Shown: one piece after another, positions 2-33,057 of the stretch
How positions within the stretch are numbered: the stretch's first letter is position 1
Layout: every line of letters begins with the position of its first letter
Source of the DNA: Fimbriimonadales bacterium
GTDB lineage: Bacteria; Armatimonadota; Fimbriimonadia; Fimbriimonadales; ATM1
Reading direction: 5' to 3'
Length of the DNA stretch: 34,472 nt
Assembly (NCBI GenBank): GCA_035698285.1
Contig: DASSBY010000018.1
Location: 1-34,472 of the forward strand
Translations under genes and position numbers: made by a program
Notes under the pieces: generated by a model
What the model was told of the DNA's origin: nothing
The model's database searches: none
The model's input: only the letters and a program-made list of their open reading frames with translations

Positions 2-148
2 CTCGTTCGGGAAATCGCAAAGCTCGCCGACGGCGGAGGCGGTGGCTCGCCCGAATTCGCGCAGGCAGGGGCCAAGGACGTATCCAAAATCGCTGCTGCC
101 ATGGCGGCGGCGCCCGACATTATCAAGGCACAAACCGGAGGAGACTGA
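2..148 (+). CDS. alaS: 3' end of alanine--tRNA ligase (partial, truncated by the window edge)
   Basis: Frame 2 reads LVREIAKLADGGGGGSPEFAQAGAKDVSKIAAAMAAAPDIIKAQTGGD-stop. The G-run followed by P..AQAG matches the C-terminal AlaRS motif as I recall it from E. coli (GGKGGGRPDMAQAGG). The TGA at 146-148 shares one base with the next ATG. Confidence 0.5.
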   Translation, partial: LVREIAKLADGGGGGSPEFAQAGAKDVSKIAAAMAAAPDIIKAQTGGD

Positions 149-858
149 TGCGTCGGCGCGCACTCACCATTGCCGAGGTTCTCGTCGTTCTTCTGGTGAT
201 CGCTATTGCGGCTGCGGTTGTTGCCCCAGTCTGGGCACACGTGAAAGACGCTGCCCGCCGAGCCGCGTGCCTTTCCAAACTCCGGAAGCTTGGAGTAGGC
301 ATGGCGATATACATCGAGGAAAGCGATAAGAAACTTCCGCTCTCGGCAGGCTGGGTCGCAGCTGTATCTGCTGGCAGCGACTTCGCCATCATGCACTGCC
401 CCAGCTCATTGCCGGCCGGGATAGCCTCCGGCGTCGACGTAAGCTACACCTACAACGGCTACTTAAACGGCTATCCAATAACTCAAATTCCAAGCTTGGC
501 ATCGACTGTGGCCGTTTGGGAGGGCATGGGAAAGGCCGTTTCGCGAGGCAATCCCGCAAACCCACGTCTCATCTGCCCAGACCCAGCGTCACCCTGCGTT
601 TTCCAGCCTCAAGGAGGCCCGAAGAGCGCCTTCGATATCCCCAAGGGCACGATGTGGGTTCACGGGCGCGGCGCAAACTTTCTCTTGGGAGACGGCCACG
701 CGCAATGGCGAAGACTTGGGCCCAAGGAGGGGAAGCCTACCAACCCACGAATCGATCCCTTTATGGTTTACGATCGCAAAGGCGTTGCGCTCGAAGCTTG
801 GACGGACGACGGTACGGGCACGGGGAAAGCGCTTCTATTCATGCCGCGATTTCATTGA
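148..858 (+). CDS. Prepilin-type N-terminal cleavage/methylation domain protein, H-X9-DG (DUF1559-like) family
   Basis: The N-terminus MRRRALTIAEVLVVLLVIAIAAAVVAP is a pseudopilin-like hydrophobic helix. The C-terminal part VHGRGANFLLGDGHAQW fits H-X9-DG. The stop is TGA. Confidence 0.8.
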   Translation: MRRRALTIAEVLVVLLVIAIAAAVVAPVWAHVKDAARRAACLSKLRKLGVGMAIYIEESDKKLPLSAGWVAAVSAGSDFAIMHCPSSLPAGIASGVDVSYTYNGYLNGYPITQIPSLASTVAVWEGMGKAVSRGNPANPRLICPDPASPCVFQPQGGPKSAFDIPKGTMWVHGRGANFLLGDGHAQWRRLGPKEGKPTNPRIDPFMVYDRKGVALEAWTDDGTGTGKALLFMPRFH

Positions 859-1322
859 ACGCTGAGGATCTTATATCTTTGAATCCCGGCCGGCGCCTCG
901 ACTTCTGCCTCATCGCCTTCCTTTTTGCCTACCAAAGCTTTGCCCATGGGCGAATCGATTGAAACCTTCCCTTCGGCAGGATCAGCCTCATAAGAGCCTA
1001 CGATTTCGACCGTCATTTCCTCCTCCCACTTGGCGTCGAGCAGTTTTATTTTGCTGCCCAACTGGGCAACTCCGTCCTCGCCGTCGGCTTGCTCGACGAC
1101 GCGAGCCACTTCCAGTATCTTCTCGATATCGGCGATACGGCCCTCCAGCCGTCCTTGGTTTAGCTTGGCTTCATGATAAGCGGCATTCTCCCGCAAGTCA
1201 CCGTGGGAACGCGCCTCACGAATGGCGTCCGACGCAGCGTGGCGCTTTGGTCCTTTGAGTTCCGCCAATTCGGCGCGGAGCTTTTCCAAGCCGGCAGGGG
1301 TTAGGATTACTTCGTCCCGCAT
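852..1322 (-). CDS. greA: Transcription elongation factor GreA
   Basis: 156 aa. LTPAGLEKLRAELAELK...REARSHGDLRENAAYHEAK is the classic GreA coiled-coil N-terminus, and the C-terminal part ISIDSPMGKALVGKKEGDE also fits GreA. Confidence 0.93.
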   Translation of the reverse strand: MRDEVILTPAGLEKLRAELAELKGPKRHAASDAIREARSHGDLRENAAYHEAKLNQGRLEGRIADIEKILEVARVVEQADGEDGVAQLGSKIKLLDAKWEEEMTVEIVGSYEADPAEGKVSIDSPMGKALVGKKEGDEAEVEAPAGIQRYKILSVQ

Positions 1323-1356
1323 GGCATAAGTTTACCGAGCCGGCAATATTGAGAAA

Positions 1357-1402: not shown

Positions 1403-1612
1403 CTACTTGTTCGGACCTTTGGCTCCACCTTTGATGATGAACTCATCGGGGATCGGTGGCGCCACGGCAGAGCCGGGACGCGGCGGGGGCGTCTTATCGA
1501 GGCCGGTATCGGTCGAAGCACCCATCTTCATCCAGAGCAGAATGACGATTCCCACGGCAATCGCCACAATGCCCCATATGACAACCGGGGACTGCTTTAC
1601 CTTAGATCCCAC
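1403..1612 (-). CDS. Small hypothetical membrane protein (69 aa)
   Basis: There is one clear TM helix (VVIWGIVAIAVGIVILLW) followed by a Pro-rich tail. The start overlaps the end of the upstream gene by 16 nt. I recognise no family. Confidence 0.45.
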   Translation of the reverse strand: MGSKVKQSPVVIWGIVAIAVGIVILLWMKMGASTDTGLDKTPPPRPGSAVAPPIPDEFIIKGGAKGPNK

Positions 1613-2508
1613 AAGTATTGATCTCCGTCGTAAGCCAGGCCCTGAAAGTTCCGGCGAACGTCACAGCCGGCGCTGATGTTGCCGATGCGCATGGTTTTGG
1701 TATGCCCATCCACAAAGGCGATGTTGACCTGCTTCGAATGATACGGATACAAGCCGCCCCATTCGAGCCAATAGTTGGAATCGTTCGGATTGCATCCCAC
1801 GCACCAGCCAACGCCGTACGTCTGCCACCTGCCATTATTGCCATTGCCGGTGTAGTCGGATATCGGCTCCATGAACTGCTGGTTTTCGTCCCGGACGCAT
1901 GGCGCTTCGATAACCCAGTTCCCGCCGCCGGTGGGATCTCCATTCGGTTTACGCAGCCACATGCTGTCGCCGAACAGAATCGTTGCGCCCGGTTGCGCGA
2001 TTCTGCCTGCGTTGATGGGCGCCGAACCAACATAAGTCCCGCCCGGGTCTTGACGCGTTATCCACGGACTTAGGAAGTCGTAGTTGTAGCCGAGATCGGT
2101 GCGCGAGAGCCAATAGTAGTAGAAGCTCGGGTCGCTCTTGTCTGCCGGCCGGTCGTTCGGATCCATCGACAAACCTTGGTCTGTCGCGTTGGGGTCCGCC
2201 GGGCATCGGAAAACGTAGTAACTCTGAACGTAGGAGTAAATGAGTTCGCCCCAAACGTAGTCGGGCCGTCCAAAGCCCCATCCGGGACCATTGATACTGC
2301 CTTGATTGGCGTGGGGAAGGCCATCATCGTGGTCTCCCATGTACATCATCATGGACTTGGTGACCTGGTTGAAGTTGGCCAAACAGCTGATTTTCTTTGC
2401 AGCCTGCTTGGCGGCTGCGAACACGGGGAATAGTATTGCCGCAAGAATGGCAATGATTGCTATGACAACTAGCAATTCGATTAGCGTGAAAGCCTTTCGA
2501 TTGCGCAT
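1597..2508 (-). CDS. Prepilin-type N-terminal cleavage/methylation domain protein, H-X9-DG (DUF1559-like) family
   Basis: MRNRKAFTLIELLVVIAIIAILAAILFPVF is a canonical prepilin-like N-terminus. YHSKQVNIAFVDGHTKT fits H-X9-DG. AAGGAGG lies 7 nt upstream of the ATG. Confidence 0.88.
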   Translation of the reverse strand: MRNRKAFTLIELLVVIAIIAILAAILFPVFAAAKQAAKKISCLANFNQVTKSMMMYMGDHDDGLPHANQGSINGPGWGFGRPDYVWGELIYSYVQSYYVFRCPADPNATDQGLSMDPNDRPADKSDPSFYYYWLSRTDLGYNYDFLSPWITRQDPGGTYVGSAPINAGRIAQPGATILFGDSMWLRKPNGDPTGGGNWVIEAPCVRDENQQFMEPISDYTGNGNNGRWQTYGVGWCVGCNPNDSNYWLEWGGLYPYHSKQVNIAFVDGHTKTMRIGNISAGCDVRRNFQGLAYDGDQYLWDLR

Positions 2509-2607: not shown

Positions 2608-2811
2608 CTATTCGCCGCTTCTTTGACGGTATTTTTTGGCCTGATCGGGGTCGACCTTGCGCATTCGGCGCAATAATTCGTTGTCCCCGCCCGGCTTTGG
2701 GACCTGCCGCTTGGCTGGCCCCTCCTCGTCGCCCGGCTTGCGCTCAGGCGTCGGAAGGTCACGCTCGCGGCGTTCGATCGATGCGATCCCATGTTCGTTT
2801 ATGTACTTCAT
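2608..2811 (-). CDS. Pup-like small protein modifier, UBact-type (67 aa, C-terminal ...YRQRSGE)
   Basis: The protein is short, charged and looks disordered. Its tail ELLRRMRKVDPDQAKKYRQRSGE-stop matches my memory of the UBact C-terminal consensus (R-[TS]-G-[EQ] terminus). Its ATG overlaps the upstream msrA TGA stop as ATGA. Confidence 0.65.
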   Translation of the reverse strand: MKYINEHGIASIERRERDLPTPERKPGDEEGPAKRQVPKPGGDNELLRRMRKVDPDQAKKYRQRSGE

Positions 2812-3422
2812 CGTATTCTGCAGGCGCCGCCGGCGTGCTTACCGTAATATTGCTGGTGATAGTCCTCGGCCATCCAGAAGGTACCTGCTTTGGTGACTCG
2901 CGTACCGACAGCCGTCCCTCCGGCCCCGATCGTATCTATTTTGTGCTTGGCCAAAGCTGACTGCTCATCGGAAAAAGTGAAGATCTCGCTTCGGTACTGC
3001 TCACCGGGAGAGCACTGCCGACTCGGGTTATGGATTTCAAAGAAAACGTTCAACAGCTTTTCGTACGTCACTTTCGAAGGATCGTACTCGACGAGAACCG
3101 ACTCGGCATGCCCCGTCCGTCCGGAACACACTTGCTCATAAGTCGGCGAAGCCGTAACGCCGCCCGTATAGCCGACTGCCGTCGCAACAACGCCTGGGAC
3201 TTGGCGGAACTCCGCCTCGATTCCCCAAAATCACCCTGCTGCAAACAAAGCAAGCGCGTGCCCGTCGGCCAGAGCCTTAGCATCGCTATCGAGCCTCGTC
3301 GTGACTCCGCCGGGGTGGGTACCGACGCCGCTCGTGTCCGTCCCGCTGCCCATGTTTTGTATCCCTAGACCGGCGACCGCTGAGGCTGCAAGACCCATCG
3401 TTATCCAGTTCATCGTTCTCAT
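2808..3422 (-). CDS. msrA: Peptide-methionine (S)-S-oxide reductase MsrA with in-frame TGA (3231-3233) at the catalytic Cys position; candidate selenoprotein with an N-terminal signal-like segment
   Basis: ORFs 3231-3422 and 2808-3131 are in the same frame. Read-through gives ...HALALFAAG-[TGA]-FWGIEAEFRQVPGVVATAVGYTGGVTASPTYEQVCSGRTGHAESV...EDYHQQY. The paralogue at 4187-4657 has [10 protein letters not shown] at the same place. AGGA lies 9 nt upstream of the ATG at 3422. Confidence 0.7.
3195..3227 (-). promoter_or_regulatory. Candidate bacterial SECIS hairpin downstream of the msrA UGA
   Basis: The mRNA reads UGA-UUU-UGGGGAAUCGAGGCGGAGUUCCGCCAAGUCCCA. The lower stem is UGGG/CCCA. The upper stem is GGCGG/CCGCC with apical loop AGUU, which starts 19 nt after the UGA. 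Confidence 0.5.
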
Positions 3423-3543
3423 CAGTACTTATCCTAATGCCCGCTGCAAGTATACAGTTCCCTTCGGGCCCAAAGTCCTGCCGAATCCGTTCGCTGAGCC
3501 TCGATTTCGAAGCAATCGGGCAAACTGAGGCGTAGAGTTCGGT

Positions 3544-3560
3544 GGACGTTAGAAACGTCC
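3544..3560. promoter_or_regulatory. Perfect 7-3-7 inverted repeat GGACGTT-aga-AACGTCC in the divergent msrA / Met-rich gene intergenic region (operator or leader hairpin candidate)
   Basis: The repeat is read directly from the sequence and is extendable to 9 bp with one G-U pair. It lies about 50 nt upstream of the ATG at 3609 and is followed by the tandem ACAAGC-ACAAGC-ACAAGG (3577-3594) that runs into the SD. Confidence 0.4.
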
Positions 3561-3608
3561 GCGGCAGACAAAGTCAACAAGCACAAGCACAAGGAGATCG
3601 ACAACATT

Positions 3609-4142
3609 ATGAAAACGCTAGCGATCGCGGCCGTTTTGGCCGCCGTAGTTGCCGCCCAAGCTCAGCCCCAAGTGGACATGAAACCGCCTCCCGAAATGCA
3701 GAAGGTGGCATGGATGGTGGGCGAGTGGAAGGGCAATATGAAAATGCACATGCCCGGCATGGATCAGCCGATGGACAGTGCGAGCACCATCTCGGCGAGA
3801 ATGGGCGTCGGAGGCCGCTATTTGGTCGTCAATTTCATGTCGGCCATGGGCGACATGGGCGCCACGGAGCACATGGAGCTCATTACCTACGACCCAGCCC
3901 AGAAGAAGTGGGTCTGCTGGGGCTTTGACTCCGTCGCCCCAGGGACGATGGAATCTTCCGGCGACCTCATGGGCAACAAAATGGTGGTGACGAGCAAACC
4001 GATGACGATGCCCGGCGGTCCCCCGGATACGTTCCGAACGACCGTGACCAAGAAATCGGACACCGAGTTTGATTTCCTGCTCGAGCACAAAGTGAACGAC
4101 GCTTGGACGAGCATGATCGAGGGCACGTTCACTAAGTCGTAG
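3609..4142 (+). CDS. Secreted DUF1579-like protein, unusually methionine-rich
   Basis: The signal peptide is [19 protein letters not shown]. The core WMVGEWKG...GGRYLV...[17 protein letters not shown] resembles the DUF1579 family. I count 20 Met in 177 residues. AAGGAG sits upstream of the ATG. Confidence 0.75.
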
Positions 4143-4149
4143 CCTTAAC

Positions 4150-4171
4150 GGTGCGGCCGCGATGCCGCACC
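4150..4171 (+). other. Perfect 8-bp hairpin (GGTGCGGC-cgcgat-GCCGCACC) between the Met-rich gene and the second msrA
   Basis: The hairpin is read directly from the sequence and has no following T-tract. It could be an mRNA processing or stability element, or a weak attenuator. It covers the GTG at 4151, which argues for the ATG at 4187 as the msrA start. Confidence 0.4.
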
Positions 4172-4186
4172 AACGTAATACTAACT

Positions 4187-4657
4187 ATGGAAATCGCAAC
4201 TTTCGCAGCAGGATGTTTCTGGGGTGTAGAAGACCTCTTCCGCCAAATAGAGGGCGTGACCGAGGCAATTAGCGGATACACGGGGGGAACGCTTGTCGAT
4301 CCGACGTACCAGGACGTATGTTCCGGAACCACCGGCCACGCAGAAGCCGTGCAGATAAACTTCGACCCTGCTGTCATTCCCTACGAAAGCCTGCTCCAAG
4401 TTTTTTGGGAGACCCATGATCCGACCACGCTTAATCGCCCAGGGCCGGACGTGGGACGTCAGTACCGGTCCGCCATTTTCTATCATTCCGAGGAGCAAAG
4501 AGAGGCTGCCACGGCTTCCCTCCTTGCAAGGCAGCAATGCCTCGATCGGCCGATCGTTACGGAAATAGCCCCCGCAACGCCCTTCTTCCCGGCCGAGGAA
4601 TACCATCAGCAGTACCTGATGAAACACGGCCTTTCCTCCTGCCATATTCGGCAATAA
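4187..4657 (+). CDS. msrA: Peptide-methionine (S)-S-oxide reductase MsrA (Cys form, no signal peptide)
   Basis: [24 protein letters not shown]...GYTGG...[19 protein letters not shown]...QYRSAIFY...EEYHQQYL is canonical MsrA. I chose the ATG at 4187 rather than the GTG at 4151. Confidence 0.92.
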
Positions 4658-11111: not shown

Positions 11112-13562
11112 TTGCCCGAAAACGAACCCACGGAACCCCTGATCATTCCCGTAGCCGACGAAATGCGGCGCAGCTATGTGAACTACGCGATGAGCGTCAT
11201 CATCGCAAGGGCCTTGCCCGATGTCCGCGATGGCCTCAAGCCCGTCCAGCGCAGAATTCTTTACACCATGCTCCAGGGCAACTGGACGCCCGACCACGCC
11301 CGAACCAAGAGCGCGAAGATTATCGGCGATTGCTCGGGCAACTACCATCCCCACGGCAACGACGCGATCTACATGACCATGGTGCGCATGGCGCAAGACT
11401 TTTCGCTGCGTTATCCGCTCGTCGACCCCCAAGGCAATTTCGGCAGCATCGACGGCGACGCCCCTGCGGCCTTCCGCTACACCGAAGCCCGCCTCAGCAA
11501 GGTCGCCATGGAGATGCTGGAAGATATCGACAAAGAAACCGTCGATTGGACCCCGAATTACCTGCAGACCATGAACGAGCCGCTTGTCCTCCCTGGTAAG
11601 TTCCCGAACCTCATCTGCAACGGCACGCAAGGTATCGCCGTCGGCATGGCGACCAATATGCCGTCGCACAATTTGAACGAAGTCGTCGACGCGATTCTCT
11701 TGCGGATGGATAACCCGAACTCGACACCGGAAGAAATCATGAAAGTCCTTCCCGGACCCGACTTCCCCACGTACGGCATGATTTTGGGCACCAAAGGCAT
11801 CCGCAGCATGTACGAAACGGGCCGCGGAAGCGTGGTCATGCAGGGAAAGACGGCTATCGAGCCAACGGACGGCGGGCGGTCCGTCATTGTCATTAGTGAA
11901 ATCCCCTATCAGGTAAACAAAACAACCCTCATTCAGCAGGTAGCCGACATTATCCGAAACAAAAAGATGGAGGCCATTTCCGGAATCGTCGACCTGAGTG
12001 ACCGACGAGGAATGAGGATTGAGATTTCCATCAAGCGCGAGGGCAACCCCAACAAGGCCCTCAACTATCTTTATAAACACACGCTGCTGCGAACTTCCTT
12101 CGGCGCTATTCTGCTGAGCCTCGTGGACGGCGTCCCGAGAACGGCGCCCATCACCACGCTTCTCGACGAATACCTCCGGCATCGCAAAGAAGTAATCGAG
12201 CGGCGCACCAAATTCGAACTCTACAGAGCGCTCGAGGAGGCGCACATCAGCGAGGGTTACCAAATCGCGCGCGCCAACCTCGACGATGTTATCCGCATCA
12301 TCCGCGCGGCCGAGGATCCCGAAGATGCCCGGCGCGAACTCGTCCGCAACTTCGCCATGACCATGTTCCAGGCGAACGTCATCCTCAACATGCAGCTCCG
12401 CCGCCTCACGAAACTGGAGCAGGCCAAGCTGGAAGAGGAATACAAAAAGATCTTGCGCAAGATCGCCGACCTGGTCGATATTCTAAGTGATCCGCACCGA
12501 ATAGAGCAAATCTTAAAGGCCGAACTTGAGGAAATGCGCAAGAAGCACGGCGACGAGCGGCGCACGAAAATCCTCCCTATGGAAGCCGGCGAAATCGGCG
12601 ACGAGGACATGATCCCCGAAGAAGAGGCCATCGTCTCTATCAGTCGCGACGGCTACATCAAGCGCATGAGCCTCGATGCCTATCGAGACCAGCGTCGCGG
12701 CGGCAAAGGCGTTATCGGTCAAACCATGAAAGAGGCGGACGAAGTCGGGCACCTTTTCCAGGTCAGCACGCACCACTTTATTCTTTTCTTCACAGACAAG
12801 GGCCGCGTCTATCGGCTGAAGACGTACGAAATCCCGGAGTCCGGCCGCTACGCGAAAGGCACGCCGGTAATCAACTACATCCAAATCGAGAGCGGCGAGA
12901 TGGTAACTGCGACGCTCACCGTGAAAGATATCCGCGGCGAGGGATTCTTGGTTATGGCCACCAAGATGGGCGAAGTAAAACGCACCCCCATCAGCGCTTT
13001 TGCGAACCTGCGTACAAACGGCCTTCGCGCTTTTGATATCGAAGAGGGCGATGAACTGGCCTGGGTTATGCGGAGCACCGGCGACCAGGATATCCTCATG
13101 ATTAGCCGAAAAGGCATGAGCATTCGATTCAACGAACACATGCTGCACGGTCGCTCGCGCGCAGCCGGCGGTGTTCGCGGCATGAATCTGCGAAAAGGCG
13201 ACGAAGTCGTATCCGCGATGATCGTGGAGGAACCAGACCTGAGTCTTCTCGTCGTAGGCGAGAACGGCTTCGGCAAGCGAACTCCATTGTCCGAATATCG
13301 GCCGCAAAACCGCGGCGGATACGGCCTCATAACGATGAACGTCACCGCAAAGACCGGACCTGTCATCGGCGCGGAAATCGTCGAACAAGGTGACCAACTC
13401 GTCATCATGAGCACGCACGGAAAGGCCATCCGCCTTCGCATCGACGAAATTCGAACCGTAGGAAGAATTGCGCAGGGTGTCAAGCTCATCGATCTGACGA
13501 AGGGCGACCAGGTGGCGTCCATCGCTCGCGTGATAACCGAGAGCGACGACGGCGCCGAGTAA
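11112..13562 (+). CDS. gyrA: DNA gyrase subunit A
   Basis: 816 aa. It has YAMSVIIARALPDVRDGLKPVQRRILY, the active-site region AAFRYTEARL, the GyrA box QRRGGKG and C-terminal beta-pinwheel repeats. The start codon is TTG. Confidence 0.96.
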   Translation: MPENEPTEPLIIPVADEMRRSYVNYAMSVIIARALPDVRDGLKPVQRRILYTMLQGNWTPDHARTKSAKIIGDCSGNYHPHGNDAIYMTMVRMAQDFSLRYPLVDPQGNFGSIDGDAPAAFRYTEARLSKVAMEMLEDIDKETVDWTPNYLQTMNEPLVLPGKFPNLICNGTQGIAVGMATNMPSHNLNEVVDAILLRMDNPNSTPEEIMKVLPGPDFPTYGMILGTKGIRSMYETGRGSVVMQGKTAIEPTDGGRSVIVISEIPYQVNKTTLIQQVADIIRNKKMEAISGIVDLSDRRGMRIEISIKREGNPNKALNYLYKHTLLRTSFGAILLSLVDGVPRTAPITTLLDEYLRHRKEVIERRTKFELYRALEEAHISEGYQIARANLDDVIRIIRAAEDPEDARRELVRNFAMTMFQANVILNMQLRRLTKLEQAKLEEEYKKILRKIADLVDILSDPHRIEQILKAELEEMRKKHGDERRTKILPMEAGEIGDEDMIPEEEAIVSISRDGYIKRMSLDAYRDQRRGGKGVIGQTMKEADEVGHLFQVSTHHFILFFTDKGRVYRLKTYEIPESGRYAKGTPVINYIQIESGEMVTATLTVKDIRGEGFLVMATKMGEVKRTPISAFANLRTNGLRAFDIEEGDELAWVMRSTGDQDILMISRKGMSIRFNEHMLHGRSRAAGGVRGMNLRKGDEVVSAMIVEEPDLSLLVVGENGFGKRTPLSEYRPQNRGGYGLITMNVTAKTGPVIGAEIVEQGDQLVIMSTHGKAIRLRIDEIRTVGRIAQGVKLIDLTKGDQVASIARVITESDDGAE

Positions 13563-29048: not shown

Positions 29049-29187
29049 AATGCTTCCTTACGCGCCTACCTTGATGTAGCGAGCATACGACGGGATGCCA
29101 TCGTCGATGACGAACATCATGTAGTAGCCAGGCGGCGCCACCCCTCCACTTGGCGGTCCTGTCACGGTAACGCTGCTGCCGTTTCTC
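29023..29187 (-). repeat. Parent copy of the duplicated junction (copper-oxidase 3' end / HAF-B 5' start)
   Basis: See 27856-28020. The offset is exactly 1167 nt. Confidence 0.8.
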
Positions 29188-30692
29188 GTGAAATCGCAAT
29201 TGATAAACCGCTGCCCTTGATCGAAGCCATGCGTCGTAGCATTCAGACGGATAAGGGTAACTTTCTCGATACTAGGCGTACCGCTCAAGGTAACCGAAAA
29301 GGTCTGGCCGTAATGCGCAACGGAATCCACGGATTGGACGACCGGCCGGGTCGAAGGATAATACGATGGGTAATAGATCCTTCCATTAAACTCCGTGTTG
29401 CTTCCCGCGCTCAGAACGCTCCCGTCCGGCAAGAGGCACGCCGTCGAATGGTACCAGCGGCGATCAGGCGACGGCATGTCGGCCGCGGTCGACCAAGTGC
29501 CGCTAATAGGATCGTAGATTTGGGTTGTCCGAACTGCATTTGCATCGATGGAGTGGTCTTCGGTGTAGGAGTGGTCGTATTTTGAACCGCCGACTACAAG
29601 GACCTTTCCGTCGGGAAGAAATACCAAATTGCAGTCCGAGGCGGCCTCGCTCATATCTTGCTTCTGCAGCCAATCTGGTGTCGTCGCGTCTTGGTCGTAT
29701 TCCCATGTCTTTGGACTGGCGGGATATCGGTAAGTATTGAGAGTGCCCGGCACGAGCTCCTTCGTACCGTTCCCCCCGCATTTGATGATCTTTCCTTTCT
29801 TGATGGGCGAGCCCGCAGTCGCAGGAATCCAAAGAACCGCACCGCTGCCCTCGGATGGTATTTGGTTCCCCTTGGGGGAGTAAAGAAGAGTTGCGAAATC
29901 TAAAATGTGGGATCTCAAGCCCTGATTCGTTTCTTCATTTCGTCTGCGCTTACCAGCCCAAAAAACGTGCATCGACGAAGGGTCATGAATGGCAAACATG
30001 AAAGGATAATTGTCGCTGTCGAAATCCACGGGCTGACCGAAGTCGTCGAGACGCTTGGCGGCAATGTCGGTCCAAACCGGGTTGATTAGGCTCAGCCTTT
30101 CGGGAACATCCGCATAGCTTAGATTCTTGTCGACTCCTGCAACGGCGAAAAACGAGCCGTCAGAGAGCGGCACGACCGTAGCGTACCACCGGCCGTGGTT
30201 CATATCGTCGACCGACTGCCAACTCAGGGTGTCGTGCTTGAACAGACTCGTATCCTTGATGCCTGGAGGCGCGTCATCAACTTTGCTTCCACCGACAAAG
30301 ATGACGTCTCCATCGCCTGTCCCGGTTTGCCCACAACAGAAATGCTCGACATCCACAAGCCGCATATCCACGTCGGGCAAAATCGTTTCTTGACCCGCCT
30401 CATCGATAAAATGAACCGTATGGCTCGGATTGGTATCCCATACGTAGGCTTGGGTGCACCGATGTCCCACCTCGTCCACGAAGGTATGACCGATCATGAC
30501 TATCCGCCCCCATTGGTTTCCCGTCGCGGGCGGCATCATCGCCATGTGGATGGCTTCAAGCGCCGAGGGCCATTTGAGCGACGCGGCGCTGAGCGACGGC
30601 CCCCAAGTGTTGCCGGCTTGCGGCGTGGCAGTTGCGCACAGGGCCAGGATTGCAAAAACCGATACCGCCCCGATCACATATTTAGCTTTCAT
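29058..30692 (-). CDS. Secreted radical copper oxidase (galactose/glyoxal oxidase-like: kelch propeller + DUF1929 E-set domain)
   Basis: There is a signal peptide. HFCCGQTG is the Cys of the Tyr-Cys cofactor region, GRWYATVVPLSDG holds the Tyr, RRWYHSTACLLPDGSVL holds the Tyr-His ligands, and LIRLNATTHGFDQGQRF holds the His ligand in the C-terminal domain. GAGGAG lies upstream. Confidence 0.75.
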   Translation of the reverse strand: MKAKYVIGAVSVFAILALCATATPQAGNTWGPSLSAASLKWPSALEAIHMAMMPPATGNQWGRIVMIGHTFVDEVGHRCTQAYVWDTNPSHTVHFIDEAGQETILPDVDMRLVDVEHFCCGQTGTGDGDVIFVGGSKVDDAPPGIKDTSLFKHDTLSWQSVDDMNHGRWYATVVPLSDGSFFAVAGVDKNLSYADVPERLSLINPVWTDIAAKRLDDFGQPVDFDSDNYPFMFAIHDPSSMHVFWAGKRRRNEETNQGLRSHILDFATLLYSPKGNQIPSEGSGAVLWIPATAGSPIKKGKIIKCGGNGTKELVPGTLNTYRYPASPKTWEYDQDATTPDWLQKQDMSEAASDCNLVFLPDGKVLVVGGSKYDHSYTEDHSIDANAVRTTQIYDPISGTWSTAADMPSPDRRWYHSTACLLPDGSVLSAGSNTEFNGRIYYPSYYPSTRPVVQSVDSVAHYGQTFSVTLSGTPSIEKVTLIRLNATTHGFDQGQRFINCDFTRNGSSVTVTGPPSGGVAPPGYYMMFVIDDGIPSYARYIKVGA

Positions 30693-32265: not shown

Positions 32266-33057
32266 ATGCTTAAGACCAACCGTGCCGCCTTTACTCTTAT
32301 CGAGTTACTGGTCGTAGTAGCGATCATCGCCATCCTCGCAGCTATCCTATTTCCCGTTTTCAACTCCGCCAAGGAAGCGGCCAAGCGAACCACCTGCTCG
32401 ACCCATATGCGCCAGCTCGCCACGGGCGTCACGCTCTACACAGACGACGCGGACGGCTGCCTCCCGATGGGGACCAATTACGGCGTCCCGAGCGGCGACA
32501 TCTATCGAATTTGGACGGCCCAAGTGTTTCCCTATGTGAAGGGCAAGCAGGTTTTCGTCTGCCCTGGAAGCGAGGGCAAATTCGGCGATACGTGGGCGAC
32601 GCGCGGCGAGATGAACATCGGCTACACGGGCGTGACGGCCTATGATCCGGAAGGCTGCATCGAGGGCGAAGGCGACAGCGCCGGCTGCGAGGGCTTCACG
32701 ACCATCGCAAACGCGAACAAGATGGAGGAGCCTTCGCGCACCGCCCTCTTCGCCGAAACGCCAGGCGGCGATTTGGCCCTGAAGTACCGCGGCTATACCT
32801 TCAGCCCTTACAACGGAATCGTGCATCCGTCAGAGTCTCGGCTAAGCCCGCCCATCACCTCCGACCGCGACGTCATCCCCGAGATGCAGTACCTCGAGCC
32901 CTCCCAGCTAAAACCCATCTGGTGCCGTCACAACCGAACCGGTAGAAACACTGGCACGTCGAGCATCATTTTCGCCGACCTCCACGCGAAACCACACTCC
33001 GCGAACTCCATCCTCGCGATGGACCGAGGCGCCAACATCATCTGGCGCTTTCGGTAA
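32266..33057 (+). CDS. Prepilin-type N-terminal cleavage/methylation domain protein (DUF1559-like, degenerate H-X9-DG)
   Basis: The N-terminus is MLKTNRAAFTLIELLVVVAIIAILAAILFPVF. The C-terminal part IIFADLHAKPHS has DL where the family has DG. Confidence 0.85.
   Translation: MLKTNRAAFTLIELLVVVAIIAILAAILFPVFNSAKEAAKRTTCSTHMRQLATGVTLYTDDADGCLPMGTNYGVPSGDIYRIWTAQVFPYVKGKQVFVCPGSEGKFGDTWATRGEMNIGYTGVTAYDPEGCIEGEGDSAGCEGFTTIANANKMEEPSRTALFAETPGGDLALKYRGYTFSPYNGIVHPSESRLSPPITSDRDVIPEMQYLEPSQLKPIWCRHNRTGRNTGTSSIIFADLHAKPHSANSILAMDRGANIIWRFR

Follow-up and report, generated by a model that had tools for sequence, protein, structure and literature searches.

The stretch of DNA analysed here, 34,472 nucleotides (nt) of contig DASSBY010000018.1 from a Fimbriimonadales bacterium (Armatimonadota) and referred to below as the window, carries a gene for a secreted, methionine (Met)-rich protein of the DUF1579 family (3609..4142, forward strand, stop codon included; 177 amino acids). 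An earlier reading made from the letters and their translations (the sequence-only reading) had placed this gene between two genes for methionine sulfoxide reductase A (MsrA), and both flanking msrA genes are real: the upstream gene is divergent and contains a TGA codon, and the downstream gene is of the Cys type, co-directional, and separated from the DUF1579 stop codon by 44 nt (4143..4186). The Met count was also correct. The translated open reading frame (ORF) contains 20 Met in 177 residues (11.3%; 19/158, or 12%, in the mature part), and the quoted clusters, SKPMTMPGG among them, are present. Across the 60 window ORFs of at least 100 amino acids the median Met content is 1.95%, and the DUF1579 ORF tops the list; the binomial probability of finding at least 20 Met in 177 residues is 4e-10 at p = 0.0195 and 3e-8 at p = 0.025. 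The next three Met-richest ORFs lie antisense to gyrA (11112..13562) and were dismissed as probably spurious.

Assignment to DUF1579 is confirmed by a full-length match to the Pfam profile (PF07617; E = 6.4e-16, 59.1 bits against a cutoff of 25.2), in which residues 27-176 cover profile positions 3-155 of 155. Export, likewise proposed before, is supported by a predicted signal peptide at residues 1-18 (3609..3662) with a cleavage site between AQA and Q. This N-terminus reads as a classical signal peptide of the Sec export route without a lipobox cysteine, and the cleavage pattern (A at -3, A at -1, Q at +1) is common to the DUF1579 family. Glutamine directly follows the predicted cleavage site (query position 19) in 128/131 family members, and an N-terminal pyroglutamate formed from this conserved residue is possible. 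The mature N-terminal tail of the family (Q-x-M-M-x-M) is rich in Met, and MxM, MxxM, HM and MPGM motifs occur in DUF1579 proteins.

The AlphaFold2 model, built on an alignment of 132 sequences, has a predicted local distance difference test score (pLDDT) of 94.9 and a predicted template modelling score (pTM) of 0.84, and comprises ten beta-strands besides the signal helix and a short helix at residues 28-36. Foldseek comparison with the PDB gives template modelling (TM) scores of 0.69-0.85 to the polyketide spirocyclases OssO and OlmO (0.72-0.85; 7sfp, 0.73/0.85) and to nitrobindin (plant 2a13, 0.69/0.79; also Mycobacterium tuberculosis Rv2717c, 2fr2), and shows a likeness to the Ycf58 fatty-acid-binding-protein (FABP)-like protein. 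The family profile reaches OlmO (7sfn) by sequence as well (E = 4.8e-8). By this model the window protein is a folded, 10-stranded barrel of the calycin type, similar to nitrobindin and OlmO. It differs from these proteins in being secreted, Met-rich and outside a polyketide cluster. Despite the similar sequence and fold, a spirocyclase identity was rejected, as the protein has a signal peptide and no polyketide synthase genes were seen among the window ORFs scanned. A heme-binding nitrobindin/THAP4 protein (PF08768) was rejected too: the profile match, at 13.5 bits, falls short of the cutoff of 25, and the proximal His is unconserved. The column of His160 in the window protein holds Met in 52% of relatives, and Met, Phe or Ser in most, so that His160 is not a conserved heme ligand.

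Exhaustive searching of 1.84 billion cluster representatives with phmmer yielded 721 DUF1579 relatives at E <= 1e-3; a word-indexed protein search found only the query's own cluster, or 13 proteins when a profile was used. Literature searches for DUF1579, and for methionine-rich combined with nitrobindin, returned no papers. The family includes tandem two-domain proteins of about 340 amino acids (among P0004, P0003 and P0008), and one protein of 4599 amino acids contains 17 DUF1579-like stretches and 122 Cys, with only 0.7% Met.

Met richness is widespread in this family. The 140 best single-domain homologue clusters have a median Met content of 8.3% and a maximum of 15.6%; 56% of the clusters reach at least 8%, and 11% reach at least 11.3%. 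Distant DUF1579 proteins recovered by profile contain 5-10.5% Met, and a Met-poor minority (29/132 members) lies below 5%. Met-rich members have 15-28 Met per protein, with His (0-5) sparse and unconserved. The positions of these residues are fluid: among 75 Met-rich members no column is Met in 80% or more of the sequences (maximum 70%), nine columns reach at least 50% and 24 reach at least 30%, and two Met-rich proteins share on average about 40% of their Met positions. In Met-poor relatives the Met-enriched columns are mainly L, F, I, T, V or Y. This pattern suggests selection on Met content rather than on a fixed ligand geometry.

Within the window protein, the columns of the 19 mature Met are clearly hydrophobic in seven cases, clearly polar in four and of a mixed loop or edge character in eight. 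When the two halves of the barrel were assigned from strand order, assuming an up-down meander with long loops at 47-54, 80-84, 108-112 and 130-141, the long-loop half held 11.4 Met per sequence and the other half 2.9 (about three times denser); for the window protein the split is 13 versus 3 (Fisher P = 0.06). Met would thus be concentrated at the long-loop end of the barrel and in the N-terminal tail, a placement that depends on the assumed topology.

The fold and the substitution pattern bear on one alternative, in which the protein, much like FABP, LolA or nitrobindin, would carry a hydrophobic or amphipathic ligand in the periplasm. Met would then provide a plastic cavity or portal, a conserved Arg and acidic residues would hold a polar head group, and the adjacency to msrA would reflect maintenance or coincidence. 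The structural neighbours are calycin ligand-binders (2a13, 2fr2, the FABP-like Ycf58 and the polyketide-enclosing OlmO/OssO), the Met-enriched columns are L, F, I and Y in Met-poor relatives, R143 is near-invariant (123/131 members), and E29, D95, D107, E159 and W166 are conserved. In addition, the distant member P0155 follows a LolCDE-like MacB/FtsX ATP-binding cassette (ABC) system and others follow ExbD. A plastic cavity, however, leaves the Met-rich N-terminal tail and loops unexplained, as well as Met contents of up to 15%, and the context in the window points to no ligand or pathway. We therefore consider a carrier function quite unlikely.

The divergent msrA gene (2808..3422, reverse strand) is predicted from its translation and from hidden Markov model matches to encode a selenocysteine enzyme (here Sec-MsrA); a hydrophobic segment at its N-terminus would serve as signal or anchor, and a linker motif reads VGTHPGGV. 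It matches PMSR with E = 2.7e-50 (U read as C) and TIGR00401 with 162.5 bits. A UGA codon (3231..3233, reverse strand) occupies the catalytic position (GUFWG), where the downstream MsrA and database homologues have the Cys of GCFWG in the alignment, and this TGA is kept in the window and in four related loci (L001, L002, L003 and L013). Downstream of it lies a hairpin resembling a bacterial selenocysteine insertion sequence (bSECIS), GGCGG-AGUU-CCGCC (3203..3216, reverse strand), with a core that is identical in the window, L002, L003 and L013 while the flanking codons differ. The stem starts 14 nt after the UGA (nucleotide 18 counted from its U), and the GU of the loop is at 24-25. In the SECIS of Escherichia coli fdhF the corresponding loop residues are G23/U24, a geometry that the hairpin appears to resemble closely. 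Because of the conserved UGA and the identical hairpin, the upstream MsrA is very probably a selenoprotein. Rfam at gathering thresholds found tRNA but no SECIS match in the window, and selA, selB, selD and tRNA-Sec were not found there; the sole tRNA is tRNA-Pro.

Sec-MsrA (MRTMNWITMGLAASAVAGLG...) and its orthologues begin with hydrophobic segments of signal or anchor type, which would place the catalytic domain outside the cytoplasm. Cys-type homologues of 205-235 amino acids share this N-terminal architecture, and exported ones of about 215-230 amino acids, with the same signal and a G-x-x-P-G-x-V linker, are common. A selenoprotein MsrA with Sec in place of the catalytic Cys has been described from Clostridium (Alkaliphilus) oremlandii (PMC4333827; PMC4479559). 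The predicted window enzyme likewise has Sec for the catalytic Cys, with a UGA followed by a hairpin. In contrast to the clostridial protein, it carries an N-terminal export segment and belongs to a subfamily of exported MsrA proteins of about 210-230 amino acids, and it appears, on cursory comparison, to lack the C-terminal helical domain. Between Sec-msrA and the DUF1579 gene lies a divergent intergenic region of 186 bp (3423..3608), which presumably holds both promoters; AGGAG precedes the DUF1579 ATG, and a scan of 3423..3608 found no sigma-70 consensus.

To place this arrangement in its genomic context, GTDB genomes and JGI metagenomes were scanned for related loci using an alignment of 10 sequences, a search that is biased to closer relatives and in which many contigs are short. 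It found 42 related loci, of which most of the named ones are metagenome-assembled genomes of Armatimonadota/Fimbriimonadales. Only the closest relatives have the msrA sandwich: L001 (the same organism, 99% identity), L002 and L013, which hold both msrA genes, and L003, where the contig ends just after the DUF1579 gene. In L002, L003 and L013 the genes form a five-gene block in which a leftward series (Sec-msrA, the gene for the ubiquitin-like protein UBact, and a DUF1559 gene) diverges from a rightward pair (DUF1579 and Cys-msrA). Identities to the window proteins are 49-51% for DUF1579, 58-63% for Sec-MsrA and 65-66% for Cys-MsrA (L002, L013), and the DUF1579 proteins of L002, L003 and L013 are richer in Met (13.4-14%) than that of the window. 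Beyond the block the flanks differ, with GreA and a DUF5916-like protein in the window and other genes in L002 and L003.

That the block is kept at about 50% identity between different flanks makes a functional tie between DUF1579 and Msr plausible for this orthologue group. The same comparison also bears on the explanation that there is no functional link, in which DUF1579 and msrA would be neighbours by shared descent and Met richness would simply be the family composition. The block was seen only in related Armatimonadota/Fimbriimonadales assemblies, all other family members examined are without msrA, a hairpin lies between the DUF1579 gene and Cys-msrA, and alignment of the intergenic regions of the window, L002, L003 and L013 revealed no shared operator or promoter motif conserved between the lineages. 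Mere descent nevertheless sits poorly with five genes that stay together at about 50-65% protein identity while both flanks change, and with a functionally coherent pairing of a very Met-rich exported protein and an exported Met-sulfoxide reductase. The msrA-linked members also lie at the upper end of the family range (11.3-14% Met against the family median of 8.3%), among its Met-richest proteins. We judge descent without function to be unlikely.

Elsewhere in the family the neighbours are of several kinds. P0010 (13% Met) is found with genes for fasciclin, an extracytoplasmic function (ECF) sigma factor, an anti-sigma factor and HtrA; at this locus (L044:1953-6476) the ECF sigma factor, a zf-HC2 anti-sigma factor, an unknown protein and HtrA/DegP follow the gene in an arrangement of an envelope-stress style. 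P0149 (15.5% Met) neighbours a 2-oxoacid dehydrogenase E1 gene, P0007 nuo genes and P0009 genes for ATPases of the type II secretion system kind, and some family members adjoin GroES/GroEL. A second recurrent context is present, in whole or in part as far as the short contigs reach, at seven loci (L005, L007, L014, L015, L016, L019 and L023): a divergent CsoR/RcnR-family repressor (Pfam Trns_repr_metal, with a Cys...His...Cys pattern, YC...THLENC), ExbD, DUF1579, a Pro-rich membrane protein and SAICAR synthase. Examples are L005:1353-3758 and L007:847-3235; the Pro-rich protein is single-pass and TonB-like in appearance.

These contexts raise the alternative that the protein binds Cu(I) or Ag(I), with the Met-rich mouth and tail taking up copper in the oxidising periplasm, like CusF, PcoC/CopC and PcoE, and the exported MsrA only maintaining the ligands, as MsrP does for CusF. 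Besides the repressor that stands next to ExbD and DUF1579 at the seven paralogous loci, P0057 (15.6% Met) directly follows a gene for a DtxR-family metalloregulator, an NRAMP-like gene (by sequence reading) lies near L004, and the Met motifs of the family would suit such a role. On the other hand, no Met or His column is invariant, 15-28 Met exceed the needs of one metal site, and the DUF1579 gene of the window has no gene for copper efflux, a multicopper oxidase or CsoR in its vicinity. CsoR-family members, moreover, also sense non-metal signals. We regard a role in soft-metal binding as somewhat unlikely.

The explanation that we tentatively favour, while holding it to be short of probable, is that the exported Sec-MsrA has the Met-rich barrel as its main client in the envelope and would keep the thioethers of the barrel reduced. 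A secreted DUF1579 barrel would have joined a Met-sulfoxide repair block in this Armatimonadota lineage. Its exposed Met thioethers would be oxidised in the envelope by HOCl, chloramines, H2O2 or copper-driven reactive oxygen species, and the divergently encoded Sec-MsrA would re-reduce the resulting S-sulfoxides; such a cycle would consume oxidant and at the same time preserve a thioether-dependent function of the barrel itself. Cys-MsrA and UBact would be co-expressed in the same damage response without being direct partners. We favour this explanation because the block is conserved and sharply bounded, the predicted compartments match and Met appears to be selected at the level of composition. 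The export-type N-terminal hydrophobic segments mean that the DUF1579 protein and Sec-MsrA could meet in the envelope, and other family members are located near genes for envelope or proteotoxic stress (ECF sigma, zf-HC2, HtrA; GroES/GroEL). Export itself, the oxidation and reduction of the DUF1579 protein, co-regulation and the crowding of Met towards one barrel end are all inferred.

Two experimentally demonstrated pairings of a periplasmic Met-rich protein with an Msr offer partial precedents. The hypochlorite-scavenging MrpX-YedYZ (MsrPQ) system, attributed to Azospirillum in the sequence-only reading, is in fact from Azospira suillum PS (Melnyk et al., 2015; PMC4436054). In MrpX, a small peptide, Met makes up 20% and charged residues 44% of the sequence, and its gene shares a unit with those for YedY/MsrP and YedZ/MsrQ under the control of SigF/NrsF (PMC4436054). 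The likeness lies in a signal-peptide-bearing, Met-rich protein beside an Msr, for which the same logic of oxidation and re-reduction is proposed. Whereas MrpX is disordered and charged, the confident model and its PDB matches indicate a folded barrel for the window protein, with 158 mature residues, 12% Met and 19.8% charged residues (D+E+K+R). The window reductases are thiol or selenol MsrA enzymes acting on the S-epimer only, in place of the molybdoenzyme MsrP and its partner MsrQ, and no molybdoenzyme or MsrQ-like family was seen among the window ORFs scanned; a SigF/NrsF pair is missing from the immediate vicinity, the sole ECF sigma factor of the window being 26 kb away; and the Met-rich DUF1579 family is mostly without an Msr neighbour. 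Membership in an MrpX-type group was rejected, as composition, fold and neighbours are all unlike MrpX (compared by its description), although predicted export is shared. The analogy is one of logic and not of membership.

The second precedent, CusF, has a defined Met2His(Trp) site within a small OB-fold barrel and is encoded in the cus efflux operon. In E. coli, this periplasmic Met-using barrel is restored by MsrPQ (Vergnes et al., 2022; PMC9302797). The common elements would be a periplasmic beta-barrel, functional Met thioethers that are redox-sensitive, and a periplasmic Msr that restores them. In contrast to CusF, the window protein is 10-stranded and calycin-like and lacks both an invariant ligand set and neighbouring copper genes, and a CsoR-like neighbour is found only at the DUF1579 paralogues.

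Several observations weigh against an Msr-client function. One is that Met richness is family-wide, and older than and independent of the msrA link. The sequence-only reading had tied the Met richness to the msrA context and had itself named generally Met-rich homologues as the observation that would speak against this; to a large extent that is what the family shows, with 77% of the 140 homologue clusters containing at least 5% Met and msrA absent from the other loci examined. In a neighbor-joining tree the msrA-linked DUF1579 proteins group in a single clade, which lies within a set of Met-rich members (8-15.5% Met), and those of the set for which the context is known are without msrA; the Met richness therefore predates the link. 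No PMSR gene was detected within 3.5 kb at any of the 37 non-orthologous loci (0/37; Pfam scan of 137 neighbouring ORFs), nor msrA near any of six further members that were looked up and have usable flanks (0/6), and members with 13-15.6% Met have neighbours unrelated to msrA. Conversely, none of three sampled loci for exported Cys-MsrA from other lineages has a DUF1579 or obviously Met-rich neighbour. The link was seen in effectively two sub-lineages only (one being the window and L001, the other L002, L003 and L013), and within the block a strong hairpin parts the DUF1579 gene from Cys-msrA.

Biochemical considerations point in the same direction. MsrA reduces only the S-epimer of Met sulfoxide. 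As both neighbours are MsrA, the block alone could not fully recycle a sink, and since no MsrB, MsrP/MsrQ, thioredoxin or CcdA/DsbD was seen among the window ORFs scanned, the fate of R-sulfoxides and the electron supply are left unexplained. About a third of the Met in the window protein, moreover, is in columns that hold L, F or I in Met-poor relatives and is therefore probably buried, hard to reach for an oxidant or for MsrA; burial was judged here from substitution spectra and strand order, not from coordinates. An older Met richness, reductases specific for the S-epimer, no evident electron donor and probably buried Met all argue against a purpose-built sink. Of the proposal that the protein is a sacrificial sink or dedicated Msr substrate, the conserved block and the matching predicted compartment remain in favour, whereas the family-wide Met richness, the folded barrel and the S-only reductases do not fit.

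A broader alternative combines these elements: the Met-rich DUF1579 branch would represent widespread, folded and regenerable thioether buffers of the envelope, nitrobindin-like barrels with a Met-studded mouth directed at oxidants and/or Cu(I), to which one Armatimonadota lineage has added a dedicated exported Sec-MsrA that is translationally coupled to UBact. Such a scenario is improbable in our view; if true, it would join repair and degradation tagging of oxidised proteins in one locus.

The worked-out pairs of a periplasmic Met-rich protein and an Msr are only MrpX-MsrP and CusF-MsrP, both from Proteobacteria and both with a molybdoenzyme. If the DUF1579 protein is indeed a client of Sec-MsrA, this logic would extend to another phylum, to a calycin-like fold and to an exported selenocysteine MsrA. 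If the link is only synteny, the locus warns against taking Met richness beside msr genes as evidence for a sink. The locus gains somewhat in interest from how large and how obscure the Met-rich DUF1579 family is, and from the coupling of Sec-msrA and UBact, which is conserved. The family comprises hundreds of clusters at 50% identity, with Met selected at about two dozen positions and no indexed paper that names it, and offers a tractable model for bulk Met in a folded secreted protein as antioxidant, soft-metal ligand or plastic surface.

The Cys-type msrA (4187..4657, forward strand) encodes 156 amino acids with GCFWG at residues 9-13 (PMSR, E = 7.5e-63; TIGR00401, 203.3 bits) and no signal peptide, and its product is predicted to be cytoplasmic. 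The GC-rich hairpin that precedes it, directly after the DUF1579 stop codon (4150..4171, forward strand), has an 8-bp stem, a 6-nt loop and a free energy of about -17.7 kcal/mol (RNAfold), without a U-tract, and was not called in a terminator scan. Stronger hairpins occur at the same spot in L002 (-35.0; ~3094..3135) and L013 (-30.6; ~1312..1350), so that each msrA-linked locus has a hairpin after DUF1579 that is conserved in position and not in sequence, with no clear U-tract. The hairpin at 4150..4171 could act as a partial terminator or as a transcript stabiliser ahead of Cys-msrA, and its location suggests that the genes of a common transcript are expressed to different degrees, or that transcription partly ends there.

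The UBact gene (2608..2811, reverse strand; 67 codons), for a prokaryotic ubiquitin-like protein, matches NF033388 (66.5 bits, cutoff 35) and PF20513 (66.4 bits). Its ATG overlaps the stop codon of Sec-msrA (ATGA), and UBact directly follows Sec-msrA in L002 (87% identity) and L003 (78%) as well. No Pup-ligase, Dop or proteasome families were seen among the window ORFs scanned, so that UBact is linked here to a repair enzyme and not to tagging machinery. A literature search on UBact found nothing relevant.

Further from the block, a galactose-oxidase/glyoxal-oxidase-like protein (Glyoxal_oxid_N, Kelch, GO-like E-set) is encoded at 29058..30692 on the reverse strand, 25 kb from the DUF1579 gene; galactose and glyoxal oxidases are H2O2-producing copper radical oxidases. 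The block ends, as far as it is conserved, with a gene for a DUF1559 protein with prepilin-type N-terminal methylation (1597..2508, reverse strand; Pfam N_methyl and SBP_bac_10), which is syntenic and 65% identical in L002 and L003. It is one of three such proteins in 34 kb, together with those at 148..858 and 32266..33057 (both forward strand), and two of the three show weak H-X9-DG matches. Multiple DUF1559 proteins are typical of PVC (Planctomycetes-Verrucomicrobia-Chlamydiae) and Armatimonadota groups, which fits the taxonomy of the closest loci.

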